DNA from: Candidatus Sumerlaeales bacterium
Lineage (GTDB): Bacteria > Sumerlaeota > Sumerlaeia > Sumerlaeales > Sumerlaeaceae
Assembly: GCA_038243585.1 (NCBI GenBank)
Contig: JBBSQY010000070.1
Coordinates: forward strand, 1-11,617
DNA length: 11,617 bases
Direction of reading: 5' to 3'
In this document: in pieces, positions 1 through 11,181 of the stretch
Position numbering within the stretch: position 1 is the stretch's first letter
How the letters are laid out: each line of letters begins with the position of its first letter
The notes under the pieces: model-generated
Databases searched by the model: none
What the model was told of the DNA's origin: nothing
Seen by the model: the letters and a program-made list of their open reading frames with translations, nothing else
Position numbers and translations under genes: made by a program

Positions 1-2887
1 AGTGGTTTACGAGCAGGATTCCGTTCCTGACCGCAATGCCGAAGAGGGTCACAAAACCAACCATACTGGCGATCGACAGTACCGGAGCAATATAGACCCC
101 ACCCAGACCGAACAGGGCGCGGGTATTCGCGAGAATGGAAGGAGATTCCGTCAGGAAGACGGCAAGAATACCGCCAATAAGGGCCAGTGGCAGATTTATC
201 ATCACCAGGACGGCGGCCCGCGTTGAACCTAAAGCCATCTGAAGTAGTATTAGGATCAGCACGATCACACCCGATCCCATAATATAAATGGTTCGACTGG
301 CGGATTGCTGGGCCTCAAATTGTCCGCCATAGTGGACGGAATATCCGTATTTCGCCACTATGGGATCGACTTTCAGCTTTACGGCTTCCACCAGATCGCC
401 GAGGTTGCTTCCGACCGCCACGTTAAGCGAGATGGTGGCCTTGCGTCGACCATTTTCCCGGGCTATCAAATTGGAAGTGCTTTCGACTCCGATGGAGGCC
501 ACGTCTTCAAGCCGTACCAGGGCCCCGTCCCGACCCTGAAGAATGAGATCCCGAACCTGCTCGATTTTTTCTCTTTCATCATCTTCCAGCCGGACAACAA
601 GTTGAAGCCGACGGATCCCTTTGTTAACTTCGGCAACCACGCCACCGCTAAAGGCCAACTCAACCTGCTCGGCCGCTTTCGCGGGACTCAGTCCCCAGCG
701 GGCCAGATCGGCGGGACGAAATTTAATCGGCACCGAGTCGAGTAGAATTTCCCGGTTAGCCGCGACGTCGCGGGTGCCGGGCATGGAAATCAGAGCTCTC
801 TCTATCTCTTTCGCTATGCTGCGGAGTTTTCCAAGGTCGTCGCCAAAAACATTGATTGCGATGGCCGATGGAGTGCCGGACATTACGTGGCTCAGCCTGT
901 GCTCAATCGGCTGACCTATCATCGTGGTGATACCAGGTACGTTGCCCATCACCTCGTCAAGGGCGGCACGCACCTCCTCCTTGGCAAAGCCGGGCTTTAT
1001 AGACACGTCAATTTCTGACGAGCTTACCGGCTCCGCGTGTTCATCGCTTTCCGCGCGGCCCGTGCGCCTTACCACGCTTTTTACACCCGGGATTTCGCCC
1101 ATACGTTCTTCAACCCCAAGCGCTAATCGGTTGCTTTCCTCCAGAGACGTCCCCGGCGGCGCCATCAGGAAAACCGTAAAGCTGCCCTCGTTGAACTCCG
1201 GCAAAAAGCTGCTCCCGAAGGTGGAAGCTAACACAATAGACGCCACGGTGGCCGCCCCCGCCGCCATAAAAAGACTTTTCCTCCAGCGAAGGGCTGTCTT
1301 GAGAACCGGCTCGTAAAACATCTTTATCCAGCGGACCAGCGGACCATCGCCATGGTTGGCACCGCCGCCCAGTTTCCCGCGCAGCAACAGACTGCACAGC
1401 ACTGGCGTAACGGTAAGAGCAACGACGAGTGACGCCAAAATAGACGTGATGTAAGCGATCCCTAACGGCCTGAAAAATCGACCTTCCAGACCCTGAAGAA
1501 ACAGCAGCGGCACAAACACGATAATAATAATAATTGTCGCAAACACTACAGATGATCGTATCTCGTTGCTGGCGGAATAGACCACCTGGAGGTGCGATCG
1601 CTGGTGTTCCACCGCGAGCACGGCATTCTCTCGAAGCCTCCGAAAAACGTTTTCCACATCGATAATGGCGTCATCAACAAGCTCACCAATGGCCACCGCC
1701 AGTCCGCCCAGAGTCATAACATTAATGGAGAGACCCAGCGCCCATAGGATCAACAGGGCCACCGCCAACGACAGCGGCAACGCGGTGAGAGTAATCAGCG
1801 TGGTGCGCGCGTTCATTAAAAACAGCACGAGAATTATCGCGACAAAAATAGCCGCGTCTCTGGCCACATGCAGCACGTTCCGCACTGACAATGAAATAAA
1901 GTCGGACTGCCGCACAATGTGCCGGTTTATGACCATGCCCTCCGGCAGGCCCGGCTCGATCTGGTCCAGAACCTCGTCGATCTTTTCAGTCACCAACAGG
2001 GTATTAGCCCCCGGCGATTTCTGAATGCTGATGACAACTGCGGATTTTCCGCCCTCACTGGATGTGCCGCGTTTTGGCGCGCCAGCGATTACCACCTCGG
2101 CAACCTGCCCAATTGTTACGGGGGCGCCGTCTTGATACTTGATAACGCTCCCGCTGATATCGTCAACGGATTGCACCCGGCCCGACTGGCGAAGCGGTAA
2201 TTCCCGCCCTTCAACATTTGTCAGGTAACCCGCGCTGGCGATACTGTGAGCGTCCCGCGCGGCGTCTTCCACATCCTTAATGGTGAGGCCATAAAGCATC
2301 AGCCTGTCCTGCTTTACGTTTACCTGGTATTCCGGCAGTTCCCCGCCAATCGCAACCACCTGAGTGATACCAGGAATCCCCAGCAACTGGTTTCTTAAAT
2401 CAAACTCGGAAAAACCCCGGAGTTCGAGGTCTGAAACCTCACCCCCCGGCGACGACACGGAAATCAGCATTATCTCGCCGGTGAGGGAACTGATAGGCGC
2501 AATTTCGGCCACGGTGCCTTCAGGTAGATTTTCTCGAGCCCCCGTCAAGCGTTCGGAAACCAACTGGCGCGCGCGATAAATGTCTTCGCCCCAATCGAAT
2601 TCCACCCAGACAAGAGACAAACTCATTGCGCTGGCGCTTCGAATCCGCCGAACCCCCATCAGACCGTTGACCGCGCTTTCGAGCGGCAACGTAACATACT
2701 GTTCAACTTCATCGGCGGCCAGGCCGCGAGCTTCAGTGAGTATGACCACCGTTGGGGCGTTCAGCTCCGGAAACACGTCGACCGGCATCTGGGGGATTTT
2801 CCAGGCAGTAAAACCAAGCAGGAGCAGCGCGGCGGATATAACCAGCCCAGCGTGACTTAAGGAAAAGGCAATCAGCTTTTTCAGCAC
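1..2887 (-). CDS. CusA/CzcA-family heavy-metal efflux RND permease (3' end outside the window; about 962 codons visible)
   Basis: Not in the ORF track, translated by hand in segments that all share one frame. GTG start at 2887 lies 3 nt after the adaptor stop, with GAGGA just upstream. N-terminus MLKKLIAFSL...QMPVDVFPELNAPTVVILTEARGLAADEVEQYVTLPLESAVNG; TM4 LGGLAVAIGELVDDAIIDVENVFRRL; PEFNEGSF; near the window edge SIASMVGFVTLFGIAVRNGILLVNH. Confidence 0.96.
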   Translation of the reverse strand, partial: MLKKLIAFSLSHAGLVISAALLLLGFTAWKIPQMPVDVFPELNAPTVVILTEARGLAADEVEQYVTLPLESAVNGLMGVRRIRSASAMSLSLVWVEFDWGEDIYRARQLVSERLTGARENLPEGTVAEIAPISSLTGEIMLISVSSPGGEVSDLELRGFSEFDLRNQLLGIPGITQVVAIGGELPEYQVNVKQDRLMLYGLTIKDVEDAARDAHSIASAGYLTNVEGRELPLRQSGRVQSVDDISGSVIKYQDGAPVTIGQVAEVVIAGAPKRGTSSEGGKSAVVISIQKSPGANTLLVTEKIDEVLDQIEPGLPEGMVINRHIVRQSDFISLSVRNVLHVARDAAIFVAIILVLFLMNARTTLITLTALPLSLAVALLILWALGLSINVMTLGGLAVAIGELVDDAIIDVENVFRRLRENAVLAVEHQRSHLQVVYSASNEIRSSVVFATIIIIIVFVPLLFLQGLEGRFFRPLGIAYITSILASLVVALTVTPVLCSLLLRGKLGGGANHGDGPLVRWIKMFYEPVLKTALRWRKSLFMAAGAATVASIVLASTFGSSFLPEFNEGSFTVFLMAPPGTSLEESNRLALGVEERMGEIPGVKSVVRRTGRAESDEHAEPVSSSEIDVSIKPGFAKEEVRAALDEVMGNVPGITTMIGQPIEHRLSHVMSGTPSAIAINVFGDDLGKLRSIAKEIERALISMPGTRDVAANREILLDSVPIKFRPADLARWGLSPAKAAEQVELAFSGGVVAEVNKGIRRLQLVVRLEDDEREKIEQVRDLILQGRDGALVRLEDVASIGVESTSNLIARENGRRKATISLNVAVGSNLGDLVEAVKLKVDPIVAKYGYSVHYGGQFEAQQSASRTIYIMGSGVIVLILILLQMALGSTRAAVLVMINLPLALIGGILAVFLTESPSILANTRALFGLGGVYIAPVLSIASMVGFVTLFGIAVRNGILLVNH

Positions 2888-2890
2888 GGA

Positions 2891-4465
2891 TCAGTCCTCT
2901 CCCGGATGGAATGTTCCATCGGCGTGGAAATGTCCGCCTTCGGTGGCTTTTCCGGACCCTGTAAGTTTTAGCTCATAGACGCCGTGAAGAACGACTTCAT
3001 CGCCTTCCATCACACCGGATTTGACCACAACCCACTTGCCATCGTCAACGCCAAGGTCCGCCTCCATCCGTATCGCCTTGTCCGGGTCAGCCGGATCCCG
3101 CAGGAAAAAAATCTTCGTCAGATCGTCCTGGATAATCGCTTCCAAAGGAATCGAAAGCTCCGGATAGGCGGTGCCTTCAATTACGATCTCCGCTTGAGCG
3201 GCGACGCCGGACCTGGTCCATTTTGGCAGATCTTGCCCTGGGGTCGGGGTGACGATAAGGTTGAGAGTTCGCTGCTGGGAGTTGGCCTCTCCGCCAATGG
3301 TTAGCACACCGGTGACGGAAGTCTGCAGATCAAGACTGCCGCCCTGCGGCGGAACGATTACCGCGGACAATCCATTTTGCAGCTTGCCCAGATCGCTTTG
3401 TAGGGCGATACCGCGAAATCTGACAGCGTCCGGATCGACTGTTGTCATTATAAGCGACAAAGAATCCGCGTACGCCCCGTTGCTGCTGTCAATCGTTTGA
3501 ATTACGCCGGGAGCCGAAGCTTTCACCTCCACTCGGTCCACGGTCTGCCAATATGGAACACTCCCATCGGCTGTTTCTACCGATTTAAGAAATTCGTCTT
3601 CCGATACACCAAGAACTGATCGCGCTGTGGCTTCAGATAGCCTATGTTTAAGTTTAGCGGCCTCATATTCGGATAGCTTGGCCGCCAGCGTGGTCTGAAG
3701 CGTAGATGTCGTTCCAAAAGAACCGCTGCCTTCGGTGGCCAGTTGAAGGTATTGCTGCTCCATCTCGGCGCGTTTTTGTCCGGCCTCCGCCACGGCGCTT
3801 CTGGCCCCCGCCACATCCGATCGTGCCTGGGCAAGTTCACTCTGTTTTCCGCCTAACGCCTTTTGAAGCCGTTCCACCTGCTTAAGCCGCTGTTCCGCAA
3901 CCGCAAGCGCCTGCAGAGCACTTTCATTTTGCCCCTCGTCAGCTTCCAGCCGCTTCCGCGCAACATCCACCGCGGACTTAGACCCGCCGCGCGCCACCTG
4001 AGCGGTCATAAGAGCAGCCGATGTCATCCGTACGGCGGCTTCCGCATCAGCAATTTCCTGCTGCAGGCTGCGCCACTCACGAGAATCCAGGAGATAAAGC
4101 GGAGTACCAGTCGTAACCTGTTCATACTGGTCTACGAGCAGCTCAACTTTACCTGGCAATGGGGTCCGATACTCTCGGCGACCCGACGGCTGGCTTTCAA
4201 ATGTTCCCGGAACTCTTAATGTCCTGGAAACGGCACGACTTTCGACTTTGGCAAAAGTGATCCCCAGATTCTGCCGTACGGGCGCGGGAATTTCTATCCG
4301 ATTGGTTATGAGATCTTCTTCGGTTTCCAACGCAGTGTTTTCCGTTTGAGCGGTTGTTTCAGCGCCACTTGAAAGTTCCAGTAGTCGTCTGATTCCGATG
4401 ACGACTATCAACGCCAGTACGACGCCGATTAACACCCGCAAAACAACGGATGGTTTGAGTTTCAT
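2891..4465 (-). CDS. RND efflux periplasmic adaptor (membrane fusion protein, CzcB/CusB-like), about 524 aa
   Basis: N-terminal membrane anchor (VVLRVLIGVVLALIVVIGI), split lipoyl halves (RTPLPGKVELLV...GTPLYLLDS and EVKASAPGVI) around a long coiled coil, and a membrane-proximal motif (LSIPLEAI...LGVDDGKWVVVKSGVMEGDEVVLHG). Lies directly upstream of the permease. Start moved from 4501 to ATG 4465 because AGGAG (4476-4480) sits 10 nt upstream. Confidence 0.92.
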   Translation of the reverse strand: MKLKPSVVLRVLIGVVLALIVVIGIRRLLELSSGAETTAQTENTALETEEDLITNRIEIPAPVRQNLGITFAKVESRAVSRTLRVPGTFESQPSGRREYRTPLPGKVELLVDQYEQVTTGTPLYLLDSREWRSLQQEIADAEAAVRMTSAALMTAQVARGGSKSAVDVARKRLEADEGQNESALQALAVAEQRLKQVERLQKALGGKQSELAQARSDVAGARSAVAEAGQKRAEMEQQYLQLATEGSGSFGTTSTLQTTLAAKLSEYEAAKLKHRLSEATARSVLGVSEDEFLKSVETADGSVPYWQTVDRVEVKASAPGVIQTIDSSNGAYADSLSLIMTTVDPDAVRFRGIALQSDLGKLQNGLSAVIVPPQGGSLDLQTSVTGVLTIGGEANSQQRTLNLIVTPTPGQDLPKWTRSGVAAQAEIVIEGTAYPELSIPLEAIIQDDLTKIFFLRDPADPDKAIRMEADLGVDDGKWVVVKSGVMEGDEVVLHGVYELKLTGSGKATEGGHFHADGTFHPGED

Positions 4466-4473
4466 TAAAATTG

Positions 4474-4636
4474 ATCTCCTGACAGAGCCAAAAAGCCCCA
4501 TCTAAACACGGGAAGTTCATGAGGGAGCAGTGTTTTCTAGGGCCCGACGCACCAAGGCGTGGAAACAAAACAACTGCGCCGATACTTTCTCCGACCATAA
4601 AGGGCGGATAGGATAAACGACTATCTGTTAGGAGAT
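4474..4636 (-). promoter_or_regulatory. Putative translational attenuator: long-range anti-SD/SD helix sequestering the adaptor RBS
   Basis: mRNA 5' arm AUCUCCUAACAGA (4636-4624, covering Ile-Ser-stop of the leader ORF) pairs 12/13 with UCUGUCAGGAGAU (4486-4474, containing the AGGAG SD). An internal helix GCAG(U)UGUUUU / AAAACACUGC (4577-4567 / 4536-4527) shortens the loop. Confidence 0.7.
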
Positions 4637-5134
4637 GGCGGGGGGAGCACGAAGCTGCGGCGGCGGCCCGGAAGACAGGCTTCGCCAGTGTTGCTTATCA
4701 TCACGGGGCCAGTTGACACCCTGAGGAATGGTACAAAACGTTTCGATTCGGGCTAAAAGCACCACAAACAGTGAAGCATTAAAAAATTGGGGTGCCGGTT
4801 TCCTAATCTTCGAAAATTCAAGATGATCAGTCGCCGTGTGATGTTGATGTTGGGATGAATGCTCCGAATCGCAGGCCGGTTCCCCCTGATGATTATCATC
4901 TACGGGAGAATGTGAATCGTGGTCATCAGTTTCAAAATGCTGAAAGTCCGATTGATGATTATGACCGTGATAGTGCGTTTCATGCTCATCAAAGATGACA
5001 TGAGCAAAACTGGCCGCCTGCGACAATGGCAGTATCAACGCCATAAAGATTCCAAGGAGCAACCGCAGCTTGCATTGACGGCCTGCCCGCTTCAATTTTC
5101 CAAGGGAAAAAAATATTTTGGATGTGCTTGGCAT
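4628..5134 (-). CDS. His-rich exported leader protein with C-terminal RAPP arrest motif (CutF/CruR/DUF2946-like architecture)
   Basis: 168 aa. Basic n-region plus hydrophobic h-region (LLLGIFMALILPLSQAASFA), 15 His in residues 45-104, a second hydrophobic stretch at 117-128, and the ending GPPPQLRAPPAIS*. Same strand as, and immediately upstream of, the metal-efflux genes. Confidence 0.82.
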   Translation of the reverse strand: MPSTSKIFFSLGKLKRAGRQCKLRLLLGIFMALILPLSQAASFAHVIFDEHETHYHGHNHQSDFQHFETDDHDSHSPVDDNHQGEPACDSEHSSQHQHHTATDHLEFSKIRKPAPQFFNASLFVVLLARIETFCTIPQGVNWPRDDKQHWRSLSSGPPPQLRAPPAIS

Positions 5135-5140
5135 TGATAA

Positions 5141-5146
5141 AGATTA
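5141..5146 (-). promoter_or_regulatory. Putative sigma70-type -10 element (TAATCT) for a leaderless leader-ORF transcript
   Basis: TAATCT-TTATCA-ATG(5134), with no SD upstream. The same layout precedes polA and the prenyl synthase gene. Confidence 0.55.
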
Positions 5147-5455
5147 ATTTGTTTAAAAAATGACACCGGTAAAAAATTCTGTTACGCTCGTTTTTACTTC
5201 AGACATAAGTTGAACCTGAGCCGATTCTGCGGGTAGTTATATTAGGGTATTACAAGAGCGTAACTGCAACTGTGTCGATTATCACCTCTCCGCCCTTAAG
5301 TTCCCGTGCGGGAATTCCATCGCCTACATTCCCGTAACAGAACTACAGCCTTGAACAATACAGACATACCCCGCCAGCCCGACCCCAAAACTCATTAAGT
5401 AATTAATAGAACAGGTTAAACCACTCCAGAACCACCGCTTACATATTAATTAATT

Positions 5456-5492
5456 AAAAAAAAGGAGGCCTGTGGATAATTCCGCAATCCCT
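5456..5492 (-). terminator. Possible intrinsic terminator after polA
   Basis: Starting about 15 nt after the polA stop, an imperfect hairpin (AGGGAUUGCGGA-AUUA-UCCACAGGCCUCC) is followed by a U8 tract (A8 at 5456-5463). The stem has mismatches. Confidence 0.4.
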
Positions 5493-5506
5493 GATTTCAT
5501 GTCGCG

Positions 5507-10881: not shown

Positions 10882-11181
10882 TTATTTGGCTGCAACTATA
10901 CCAAAAGCATACGGCTTGAACTGAAATTCTTCACCAGTAATATGTTGAAGTTTTCCACCTTTTTGTTTGAAATCAGATACTAACTCCAGAGCTAAACCAA
11001 TAGCCAGACACAAAGCTTGAAGCGAGTTATCTCCGTATATGTCAATTTCTCTCTGGAGGGGCTGCACGGACACAGGACATGCCCATGCATTTTCAACTTG
11101 GTAGGGTAGACCAATCTCCACAATTATTTTAAAGCGCTCTTCATTCGGCCGTTGTCCATAAATTGTTGTTTGAGCAATCAC
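10882..11181 (-). CDS. Small hypothetical protein, DUF6968-like
   Basis: 99 aa, GTG start with an AGGTGA SD-like sequence upstream. The pattern IGLP...WACPV...IYGDNSLQALCLAI resembles DUF6968 as I recall it (not searched). About 42% GC by hand count over 240 nt. Confidence 0.7.
   Translation of the reverse strand: MIAQTTIYGQRPNEERFKIIVEIGLPYQVENAWACPVSVQPLQREIDIYGDNSLQALCLAIGLALELVSDFKQKGGKLQHITGEEFQFKPYAFGIVAAK

Follow-up and report, generated by a model that had tools for sequence, protein, structure and literature searches.

In the 11,617-nucleotide (nt) contig JBBSQY010000070.1 of Candidatus Sumerlaeales bacterium (assembly GCA_038243585.1), a small open reading frame (ORF) on the minus strand heads an operon for a metal-type efflux pump of the resistance-nodulation-division (RND) class. 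The leader protein that it encodes combines a signal-like N-terminus, a segment rich in His, Asp and Glu, a second hydrophobic segment, and the motif Arg-Ala-Pro-Pro (RAPP) three residues before the stop codon. On the strength of its sequence we propose, with moderate confidence, that the leader is a cis-acting arrest-peptide regulator of the CutF/CruR/SecM type, which would unmask the ribosome-binding site of the pump: its last codons are predicted to pair with the Shine-Dalgarno (SD) region of the adaptor gene, the first gene of the pump. The window, as the whole analysed stretch is called here, is one complete contig out of the 99 that make up a draft genome (3.43 Mb, 52% G+C). The features on which the argument depends are the following.

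4628-5134, minus strand: leader ORF, 168 amino acids (aa), ATG start, TAA stop, downstream of polA, with two full-length homologues
5006-5134, minus strand: residues 1-43, basic n-region and hydrophobic segment, candidate signal peptide or N-in signal anchor
4823-5002, minus strand: residues 45-104, His/Asp/Glu-rich segment with 15 His, 9 Asp, 5 Glu and no Lys/Arg
4727-4792, minus strand: residues 115-136, second hydrophobic segment (marginal), enclosing a conserved R/H-x-E
4631-4726, minus strand: residues 137-168, tail of 32 residues with W-P-R, K-Q-x-W and G-x-P-P-Q-L-R-A-P-P-x-x-S
4640-4651, minus strand: residues 162-165, RAPP codons CGT GCT CCC CCC, then A-I-S-stop
4466-4627, minus strand: leader-adaptor intergenic region, 162 nt to ATG 4465 (126 nt to ATG 4501)
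4624-4636, minus strand: anti-SD strand AUCUCCU-A-ACAGA, spanning Ile167, Ser168, the stop codon and 4 nt beyond it
4474-4486, minus strand: SD strand UCUGU-C-AGGAGAU, AGGAG core 10 nt upstream of ATG 4465

An earlier note on this DNA had described the leader as a candidate metal-sensing ribosome-arrest peptide placed before adaptor and permease genes, and both genes do lie downstream on the same strand. Its interpretation was reasonable; it is partly supported by the architecture (signal-like N-terminus, ligand-rich segment, RAPP with three residues between it and the stop, location as first gene before a heavy-metal efflux (HME) RND pump) and is strengthened by the anti-SD pairing. The novelty that it implied did not hold, as discussed below with the published surveys.

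The leader protein and its relatives

Residues 1-24 of the leader contain seven Lys/Arg and no acidic residue and are followed by a 19-residue hydrophobic peak at residues 25-43 (Kyte-Doolittle 1.98). By composition, namely the basic n-region, the hydrophobic peak and A-x-A-like sites, the N-terminus is signal-peptide-like, in agreement with the earlier note. The 15 His reported there for residues 45-104 were recovered, together with 14 Asp/Glu; His accounts for 25% of this segment versus 2.2% across genome ORFs of at least 300 aa. Missing from the earlier account was the second hydrophobic segment, whose peak at residues 118-136 reaches Kyte-Doolittle values of 1.56-1.95 across all three members of the leader family. 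The tail behind it is about as long as the ribosome exit tunnel and ends in GPPPQLRAPPAIS, i.e., G-P-P-P-Q-L-R-A-P-P-A-I-S-stop, with RAPP near the leader end as had been noted. When the P site holds Pro164, the second segment's N-terminal end lies 46-49 residues from the peptidyl-transferase centre, and transmembrane helices are described as beginning to pull when this distance is ~45 residues (PMC7886326).

Neither Pfam nor NCBIfam models matched the leader protein. A protein language model gave it a recognition score of 2650, above the level reached by 91% of known-family proteins. In an AlphaFold2 model built on a three-sequence alignment, with a mean predicted local distance difference test (pLDDT) score of 48, helices are placed at residues 19-53 and 115-135 at low confidence, and residues 54-114 (pLDDT <50) are without secondary structure.

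Only two relatives of the leader were found in ~15 billion proteins: P0002 (62% identical, 168 aa) and P0003 (48% identical, 157 aa). Of 19 candidates from a word-indexed protein search, one was a relative and another the query, and an exhaustive HMMER search of 1.84 billion representatives gave three matches: the query, one further relative, and the 1360-aa repeat protein P0004, which was discarded as spurious. The three family members align end to end with the same segment order, and no gap occurs from the second hydrophobic segment to the C-terminus. The tail is the best-conserved part, with 20 of its 32 columns invariant among proteins that are 48-62% identical overall, and P-P-Q-L-R-A-P-P-x-x-S-stop is kept in all three. 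Loss of the RAPP ending in homologues had been named in the earlier note as an argument against its proposal; both sequence homologues keep it. Eight His are invariant, and the His-rich segment is otherwise variable in sequence and length. No Cys column is conserved (Cys occurs at 21/88/134, 134/152 and 51, respectively), consistent with the earlier remark that the leader has no CxxC.

In the genome as a whole, RAPP occurs within the last 12 residues of 8 of 24,826 ORFs (>=40 aa), compared with 16 for AAPP and 9 for RAPA. A C-terminal RAPP is therefore unremarkable in this genome by itself, and the weight is carried by its conservation. Another ORF of the same genome with such an ending, at 24490-24741(+) of contig C7, encodes 83 aa with a hydrophobic N-terminus and S-R-A-P-P-Q-stop, 81 nt upstream of a 733-aa ORF; its context is unrelated, by appearance a restriction or mobile region, and the RAPP ending there may be due to chance.

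The phylum Sumerlaeota, which is small and apparently uncultured, was sampled as 75 species genomes. In a single-protein search, 22 of 61 genomes were matched at E<=10, all matches except that in the leader's own genome being weak and falling in unrelated or stop-interrupted frames; with the three-sequence profile, only the window's own genome was matched among the 75. Pattern searches for homologue loci gave 56 matches in genome contigs and 138 in metagenome contigs, none of which was confirmed.

Pairing of the leader end with the adaptor ribosome-binding site

The last codons and stop codon of the leader and the SD region of the adaptor gene, 150 nt apart, are predicted to form a long-range helix of 7 + 5 base pairs. 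Individual pair probabilities are 0.76-1.0, and the AGGAG of ATG 4465 is paired at 0.94-1.0. The duplex energy of -18.5 kcal/mol was equalled by 0.8% of 20,000 random genome 25-mers and by 1.2% of 7,728 window 25-mers. When the footprint of a stalled ribosome was forced to be unpaired, pairing of the SD fell to 0.08-0.92, and much of the SD was freed. The intergenic region matched no Rfam family.

The longest adaptor ORF begins at ATG 4501, which is without an SD sequence; ATG 4465 has the AGGAG upstream and begins a typical membrane-anchor sequence. A low-depth variant contig carries a 1-nt deletion at 4490, between both ATGs, which would put 4501 out of frame. From these observations we infer that translation of the adaptor starts at ATG 4465 rather than at 4501.

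Pairing between the SD and the leader end was predicted at all five R[AG]PP-ended leaders examined in the phylum, namely the window leader and four DUF2946-like leaders, with probabilities of 0.74-1.0. At these four loci, the predicted partner of the downstream SD lies within the final 15 nt of the leader ORF, and the helix sequence differs each time. Against local 25-mers, the duplex percentiles at the five loci are 0.012, 0.010, 0.034, 0.007 and 0.085. An anti-SD strand within the last 15 nt would provide a simple, testable reason why RAPP stands 2-5 codons before the stop. The downstream genes at the four loci are pseudopilin-like, with the N-terminus F-T-L-I-E-L-L. These leaders and the two further sets used for comparison are located as follows.

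L140:1468-1788(-), L141:1486-1929(-), L143:1486-1788(-), L144:1489-1851(-): DUF2946-like leaders before pseudopilin-like genes, with signal segment, H-x-x-A-H, CxxC and C-terminal RAPP/RGPP
L148:3264-3593(-), L149:3156-3596(-), L150:3008-3409(-), L151:895-1320(+), L152:905-1264(+), L155:3052-3255(-): leaders with a terminal PPK motif, upstream of adaptor orthologues
L098:2991-3398(-), L036:1413-1865(-): Gemmatimonadaceae leaders of the 135-aa class, His-rich, without a Cys motif, ending in G-P-P-P-Q-L-R-A-P-P-T-V-stop

Orthologues of the adaptor (blastp, 38-53% identical) are present in eight other genomes of the phylum, one gene each; in two of them the match came as two pieces that share one open frame. 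A single adaptor gene of this kind is also what the window's genome has. Upstream of six of these eight orthologues, at a distance of 107-187 nt, lies a small Cys/His-rich ORF with a shared PPK motif at its end, and in the remaining two an outer-membrane-factor gene precedes the adaptor. The endings read I-F-x-P-P-K plus 1-4 residues in five of the leaders and E-Q-P-P-K plus three in L155; an N-terminal hydrophobic segment is present in the same number, the called ORF of L155 being the one without it. No Pfam family was above threshold for the PPK leaders. Their kinship with the window leader was considered and rejected at a profile-profile probability of 1.7%. Because Pro-motif leaders precede most of the orthologues and are unrelated to the window leader, a Pro-motif leader appears to be the usual head of this pump lineage, although one leader appears to have been exchanged for another.

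A degenerate DNA pattern for G-x-P-P-Q-L-R-A-P-P matched at least 119 stretches of genome contigs, mostly chance matches in GC-rich genomes. Among the matches listed, the motif lies at most 10 residues from the stop in seven frames, two of which are leader-like: L036 and L098. Both are located ~190-220 nt upstream of another RND permease (ACR_tran 2.4e-242). The L098 leader stands between two RND permease genes, and L036 shows the downstream one only. At both loci the start codon of the downstream permease falls within the loop of a conserved local hairpin.

Proposed mechanism and rival explanations

According to the mechanism that we propose, the N-terminal signal would target the nascent chain to the membrane, and the His/Asp/Glu-rich segment would be exposed outside the cytoplasm. 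The ribosome would then pause while its P site holds Pro164 and its A site Pro165, a register taken from the toeprint of CruR (PMC12992588). Parked in this position, it would occupy the next ~10 nt, that is, the Ala-Ile-Ser-stop codons, which form the anti-SD strand. For the duration of the pause the ribosome-binding site of the adaptor would be free and the pump translated; if the pause is short, the helix would re-form and the pump would be off. The length of the pause would depend on the fate of the exported part, with release tied to insertion of the second segment and biased by the state of the His-rich loop. Metal on this loop would weaken or delay the pull, as has been proposed for copper and CutF, so that an excess of divalent metal would prolong pausing and thereby turn the pump on. 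Computation shows the ORF and how it is conserved, the register of RAPP, both hydrophobic segments, the predicted helix with its recurrence, and the type of pump; what we infer within this scheme is that the ribosome stalls, that metal binds and which metal it is, which way the response goes, and that sensing is periplasmic.

A fuller version, which we put forward only tentatively, is that the leader is a force-sensing sensor of divalent metal in the periplasm (Zn, Ni or Co): by binding to the loop, the metal would alter insertion of the second segment while the ribosome stands at RAPP and would set its dwell time on the anti-SD strand of the last three codons, and sensor leaders would be exchangeable modules. 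If so, the ligand specificity of pump induction could be swapped via a 0.5-kb cassette, without a transcription factor. Regulation of metal pumps is usually credited to two-component systems or to MerR/ArsR-type repressors. Leaders of the proposed type would allow extracytoplasmic metal sensing and a translational response without a regulator protein, a principle already published for CutF and CruR. Consistent with the earlier note, which had seen no transcriptional metal regulator, no regulator domain was detected in the six other ORFs of the window, which is the entire 11.6-kb contig. The locus is a compact candidate for study, with a strong and well-understood arrest motif, a clear predicted anti-SD/SD helix, and a second segment at the distance of insertion force; since the leader has no conserved Cys, no redox chemistry would confuse the read-out.

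Several points weigh against the proposed unmasking mechanism. The direction of the proposed response follows an analogy with CutF, the response of CruR being opposite. The structure model is of low confidence (mean pLDDT 48), and the hydrophobicity of the second segment, which includes Arg and Glu, is marginal. With the stalled-ribosome constraint, the GAG of the SD re-pairs locally at 0.58-0.92. The whole 241-nt region is no more stable than its shuffles (z = -0.68; 41 of 200 shuffles equal), and the support therefore consists of the one helix. Within the leader family, the helix was read from the window locus, and the choice of ATG 4465 as the adaptor start draws on the SD sequence and one low-depth variant contig. 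Pro, Ser and Leu codons are CU-rich and therefore tend to resemble anti-SD strands, and the four DUF2946-like loci are homologous to one another and therefore do not represent four independent trials. Moreover, anti-SD/SD pairing is absent at the two Gemmatimonadaceae RAPP-leader loci, and no consistent anti-SD pairing was seen at the five assessable F-x-PPK loci (L150, with masked bases, was left out); such pairing is therefore no universal property of leaders of this kind.

The same arrest leader could instead act on transcription, as in CruR: the paused ribosome would shield a Rho-loading site in the C-rich 3' part of the leader or block the path of Rho, and release of the pause would let Rho terminate before the adaptor gene. 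CruR, the sole RAPP metal leader studied in vivo, acts in this way and has the same 162-nt gap; the last ~80 nt of the leader contain more C (0.40-0.44) than G (0.19-0.23), as read in 78-nt windows starting at 4700-4680, and the two Gemmatimonadaceae loci without SD pairing imply that other outputs exist in the class. However, the Pro codons largely account for the C-richness, C is not enriched in the intergenic region (39 C and 40 G of 162), and the anti-SD/SD helix and its recurrence at five of five loci are left unexplained by a Rho-dependent output. We therefore regard that output as unlikely in itself, while both mechanisms could coexist. A distinctly unlikely explanation is that the leader ORF yields a stable accessory protein of the pump, spanning the membrane twice or located in the periplasm and binding metal, either CzcI-like or a chaperone-like buffer or donor, in which RAPP slows insertion or is incidental. 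Its length of 168 aa exceeds that of most leaders, eight His are invariant, the second segment could serve as an anchor, and CzcI-type proteins, which have no Pro motif, are thought to act as proteins (PMC9973294). Other features point the other way: conservation is best in the PPQLRAPP-x-x-S tail rather than in the variable His segment, RAPP is a strong arrest motif, and the last codons double as the anti-SD strand. The tiny family and the unrelated leaders at orthologous pumps also fit a regulatory module better, although the protein may have both roles.

What the leader senses might also be something other than metal, such as the capacity of Sec/YidC for export or insertion, or envelope stress (pH, proton-motive force), the His-rich loop being a mere translocation substrate. 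ApdA and ApdP, the classical RAPP peptides, monitor protein localisation (PMC7897499, PMC10951233); the geometry of the second segment ties arrest release to insertion capacity in any case, and His protonation could confer sensitivity to pH. We nevertheless judge non-metal sensing very unlikely, given that the downstream genes encode a metal-type RND pump and not sec or yidC, that a segment free of Lys/Arg, with acidic residues and 25% His, is of the kind expected for metal ligation, and that the leaders of orthologous pumps are Cys/His-rich. Almost no credence is given to the idea that the leader ORF is not a gene and that the region is a long 5' untranslated region of the pump operon. The missing SD before ATG 5134, the missing family match and the low-confidence structure model would agree with it; the two full-length homologues (62% and 48%) with the same length class, segment order and ending, and the language-model score, would not.

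The pump locus and known leader systems

The remaining features of the locus are the following.

2891-4465/4501, minus strand: RND periplasmic adaptor, 524 aa from ATG 4465, with HlyD_D23 and RND_mfp; the longest ORF starts at 4501
2-2887, minus strand: HME-type RND permease (ACR_tran 2e-211), 3' end cut by the contig end
5135-5506, minus strand: 372 nt of non-coding DNA separating polA from the leader ORF, presumed promoter region
5301-5314: perfect 6+6 palindrome TTCCCG-TG-CGGGAA within the 372-nt region upstream of the leader

The best NCBIfam match of the permease is the CusA/CzcA model TIGR00914 (602.5 bits, 1.4e-180), which stays below the 701-bit cut-off of that model with the gene truncated at the contig end, and its closest solved structures are CusA (1e-112) and ZneA (2e-98). 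The three-methionine site of CusA, which we take to be M573, M623 and M672 and to bind Cu(I)/Ag(I), is faced in the permease by Phe, Ser and His (phmmer alignment to 3t51_A, with an inferred 7-residue tag offset). The adaptor ends in a C-terminal tail G-G-H-F-H-x-D-G-T-F-H (within 2891-2950), conserved in the orthologues L148-L155, and in several of these His-rich stretches directly follow an N-terminal lipobox-like Cys. The tail and the stretches are likely metal sites. Because of the CusA/CzcA-type matches, the replaced Met sites and the His-rich adaptor tail, we predict that the pump handles metal, though probably not as a Cu(I) pump of the CusA type.

A scan of the minus strand of 5135-5506 revealed no sigma-70-like site, promoter and terminator scans of the locus gave scores at chance level, and no SD sequence precedes the leader ATG at 5134. 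The palindrome is embedded in a longer imperfect inverted repeat (5299-5315 / 5328-5344) and could be an operator or a hairpin. In contigs of four DNA runs, related variants cover the leader-adaptor region. A contig of run X1 joins 4696 to 4811, skipping 114 nt (38 codons, in frame), which would delete the second hydrophobic segment of the leader; a contig of run X3 has single bases missing at 4490 and 4504; and run X4 shows 4 differences in 172 nt over 4407-4578 versus 21 in 181 nt over 4597-4777. At the far end of the window, a small DUF6968 protein of 99 aa is encoded at 10882-11181(-), between a pseudouridine synthase gene and a truncated contig-end ORF.

CruR (Bp2923) of Bordetella pertussis, which belongs to Pfam DUF2946, is described as having RAPP at 139-142 of 145 residues, where it is needed for regulation; copper is sensed via an invariant CXXC located 45 residues before RAPP, and Rho-dependent termination represses a TonB-dependent importer (PMC9426467). 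The RAPP of CruR arrests translation in vitro, and in the toeprint its two Pro codons occupy the P and A sites (PMC12992588). The window leader, with its signal-like N-terminus, resembles the exported CruR as a small protein heading a metal-homeostasis operon, with RAPP exactly three residues from the stop, a fixed spacing from an upstream element to RAPP, and a 162-nt gap to the next gene in both. In contrast to CruR, it has no conserved Cys, carries a His-rich loop and a second hydrophobic segment, scores under the DUF2946 threshold, stands before genes for efflux, and ends in codons that provide an anti-SD strand.

In the SecM-secA system of E. coli, the SecM pause disrupts an mRNA structure that hides the SD of secA and is ended by the pulling force of export, so that the export machinery is monitored. 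The likeness to the window leader lies in a leader with a signal-like N-terminus and a C-terminal R-A-G/P-P-type arrest motif, and in the proposed disruption of an SD-hiding structure; the gene regulated there is secA, as opposed to a metal pump here, and the exported part here is a loop rich in metal ligands.

CutF of Rhodobacter capsulatus combines a CxxxC motif (PMC9973294), given as CxxC in the earlier note, with an EF-P-sensitive PPP motif, and precedes a multicopper oxidase gene, cutO; the SD of cutO is hidden in a stem-loop by an anti-SD strand until stalling on CutF opens it, and periplasmic copper is sensed during export (PMC9973294; bioRxiv 10.1101/2025.02.05.636593). A metal motif, a C-terminal Pro motif, the proposed opening of an SD-hiding helix by stalling, and proposed sensing during export are common to CutF and the window leader, whose N-terminus resembles the signal peptide of CutF and which differs in its length of 168 aa and in RAPP. 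In a survey of 5,334 CutF-like proteins, what most often followed them were RND genes (outer-membrane, permease and adaptor), and the His-only clusters 14 and 17 precede HupE/UreJ and not RND pumps (PMC9973294). CzcI-type proteins upstream of czcCBA are treated in the same survey as proteins without a Pro motif.

RAPP is described as a strong arrest motif avoided by proteomes, and the source data of the same study list 620 RAPP ORFs upstream of RND adaptors versus 148 AAPP controls (16-fold enriched) and 50 versus 7 upstream of CusA/CzcA genes (28-fold enriched) (PMC12992588). Both surveys thus pre-empt the novelty implied by the earlier note. The word "efflux" has no occurrence in the main text of PMC12992588, and the RND-adjacent RAPP ORFs appear there only as entries in the source data. 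Among rows 3-29 of 329 of that list, at least three (WP_094097866.1, NLE36158.1 and WP_028730569.1) were recognised by eye as His-rich and Cys-free outside the signal region; WP_094097866.1 has 162 aa and the same order of parts as the window leader. The listed ORFs share with the latter the gene order and RAPP 2-5 residues from the stop, and some, as we read the rows, are also Cys-free and His/Asp-rich and have, a few tens of residues ahead of RAPP, a second hydrophobic segment; HMMER detected no sequence similarity. The nearest named cluster by language-model features (0.94) is DUF6769 of Bacteroidota, whose listed members are RAPP-ended, His/Cys-rich and located upstream of RND adaptors (PMC12992588); it differs in being Cys-rich, and the window leader has no Pfam match or alignment-based similarity to it. 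No study of a RAPP leader ahead of an RND pump was found in the literature searched, which did not cover bioRxiv supplements. To our knowledge, none of the RAPP ORFs ahead of RND pumps has been studied so far.

The search against the DUF2946 model that the earlier note had suggested gave no support for membership. The hidden Markov model (HMM) of DUF2946 (PF11162, gathering score 23.7 bits) did not match the window leader at E<=1; at E<=10 it did not match P0002, and P0003 reached 8.9 bits (E 3.5). When the profile of the leader family was compared with that of six DUF2946-like proteins, the alignment was confined to the last 15 columns (probability 84%). A DUF2946-type CXXC/CxxxC ~45 residues before the Pro motif is absent from the three family members, all of which have a C-terminal RAPP near the stop. 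With 168, 168 and 157 aa, the family exceeds the <150-aa filter used for CutF-like proteins in PMC9973294, whereas the window leader does have PP near its end, at 164-165 of 168, and an adaptor gene 126-162 nt downstream on the same strand. The leader is not filed in the DUF2946/CutF family because of the failed HMM threshold and CXXC and the exceeded length filter. The sequence features of a RAPP arrest peptide are all present: a small ORF, a candidate localisation signal, RAPP near the stop and a co-directional downstream gene. The leader is thus CutF/SecM-like in its predicted RNA output and CruR-like in motif and predicted register, and the locus is a further example of a kind of leader already catalogued in published surveys.

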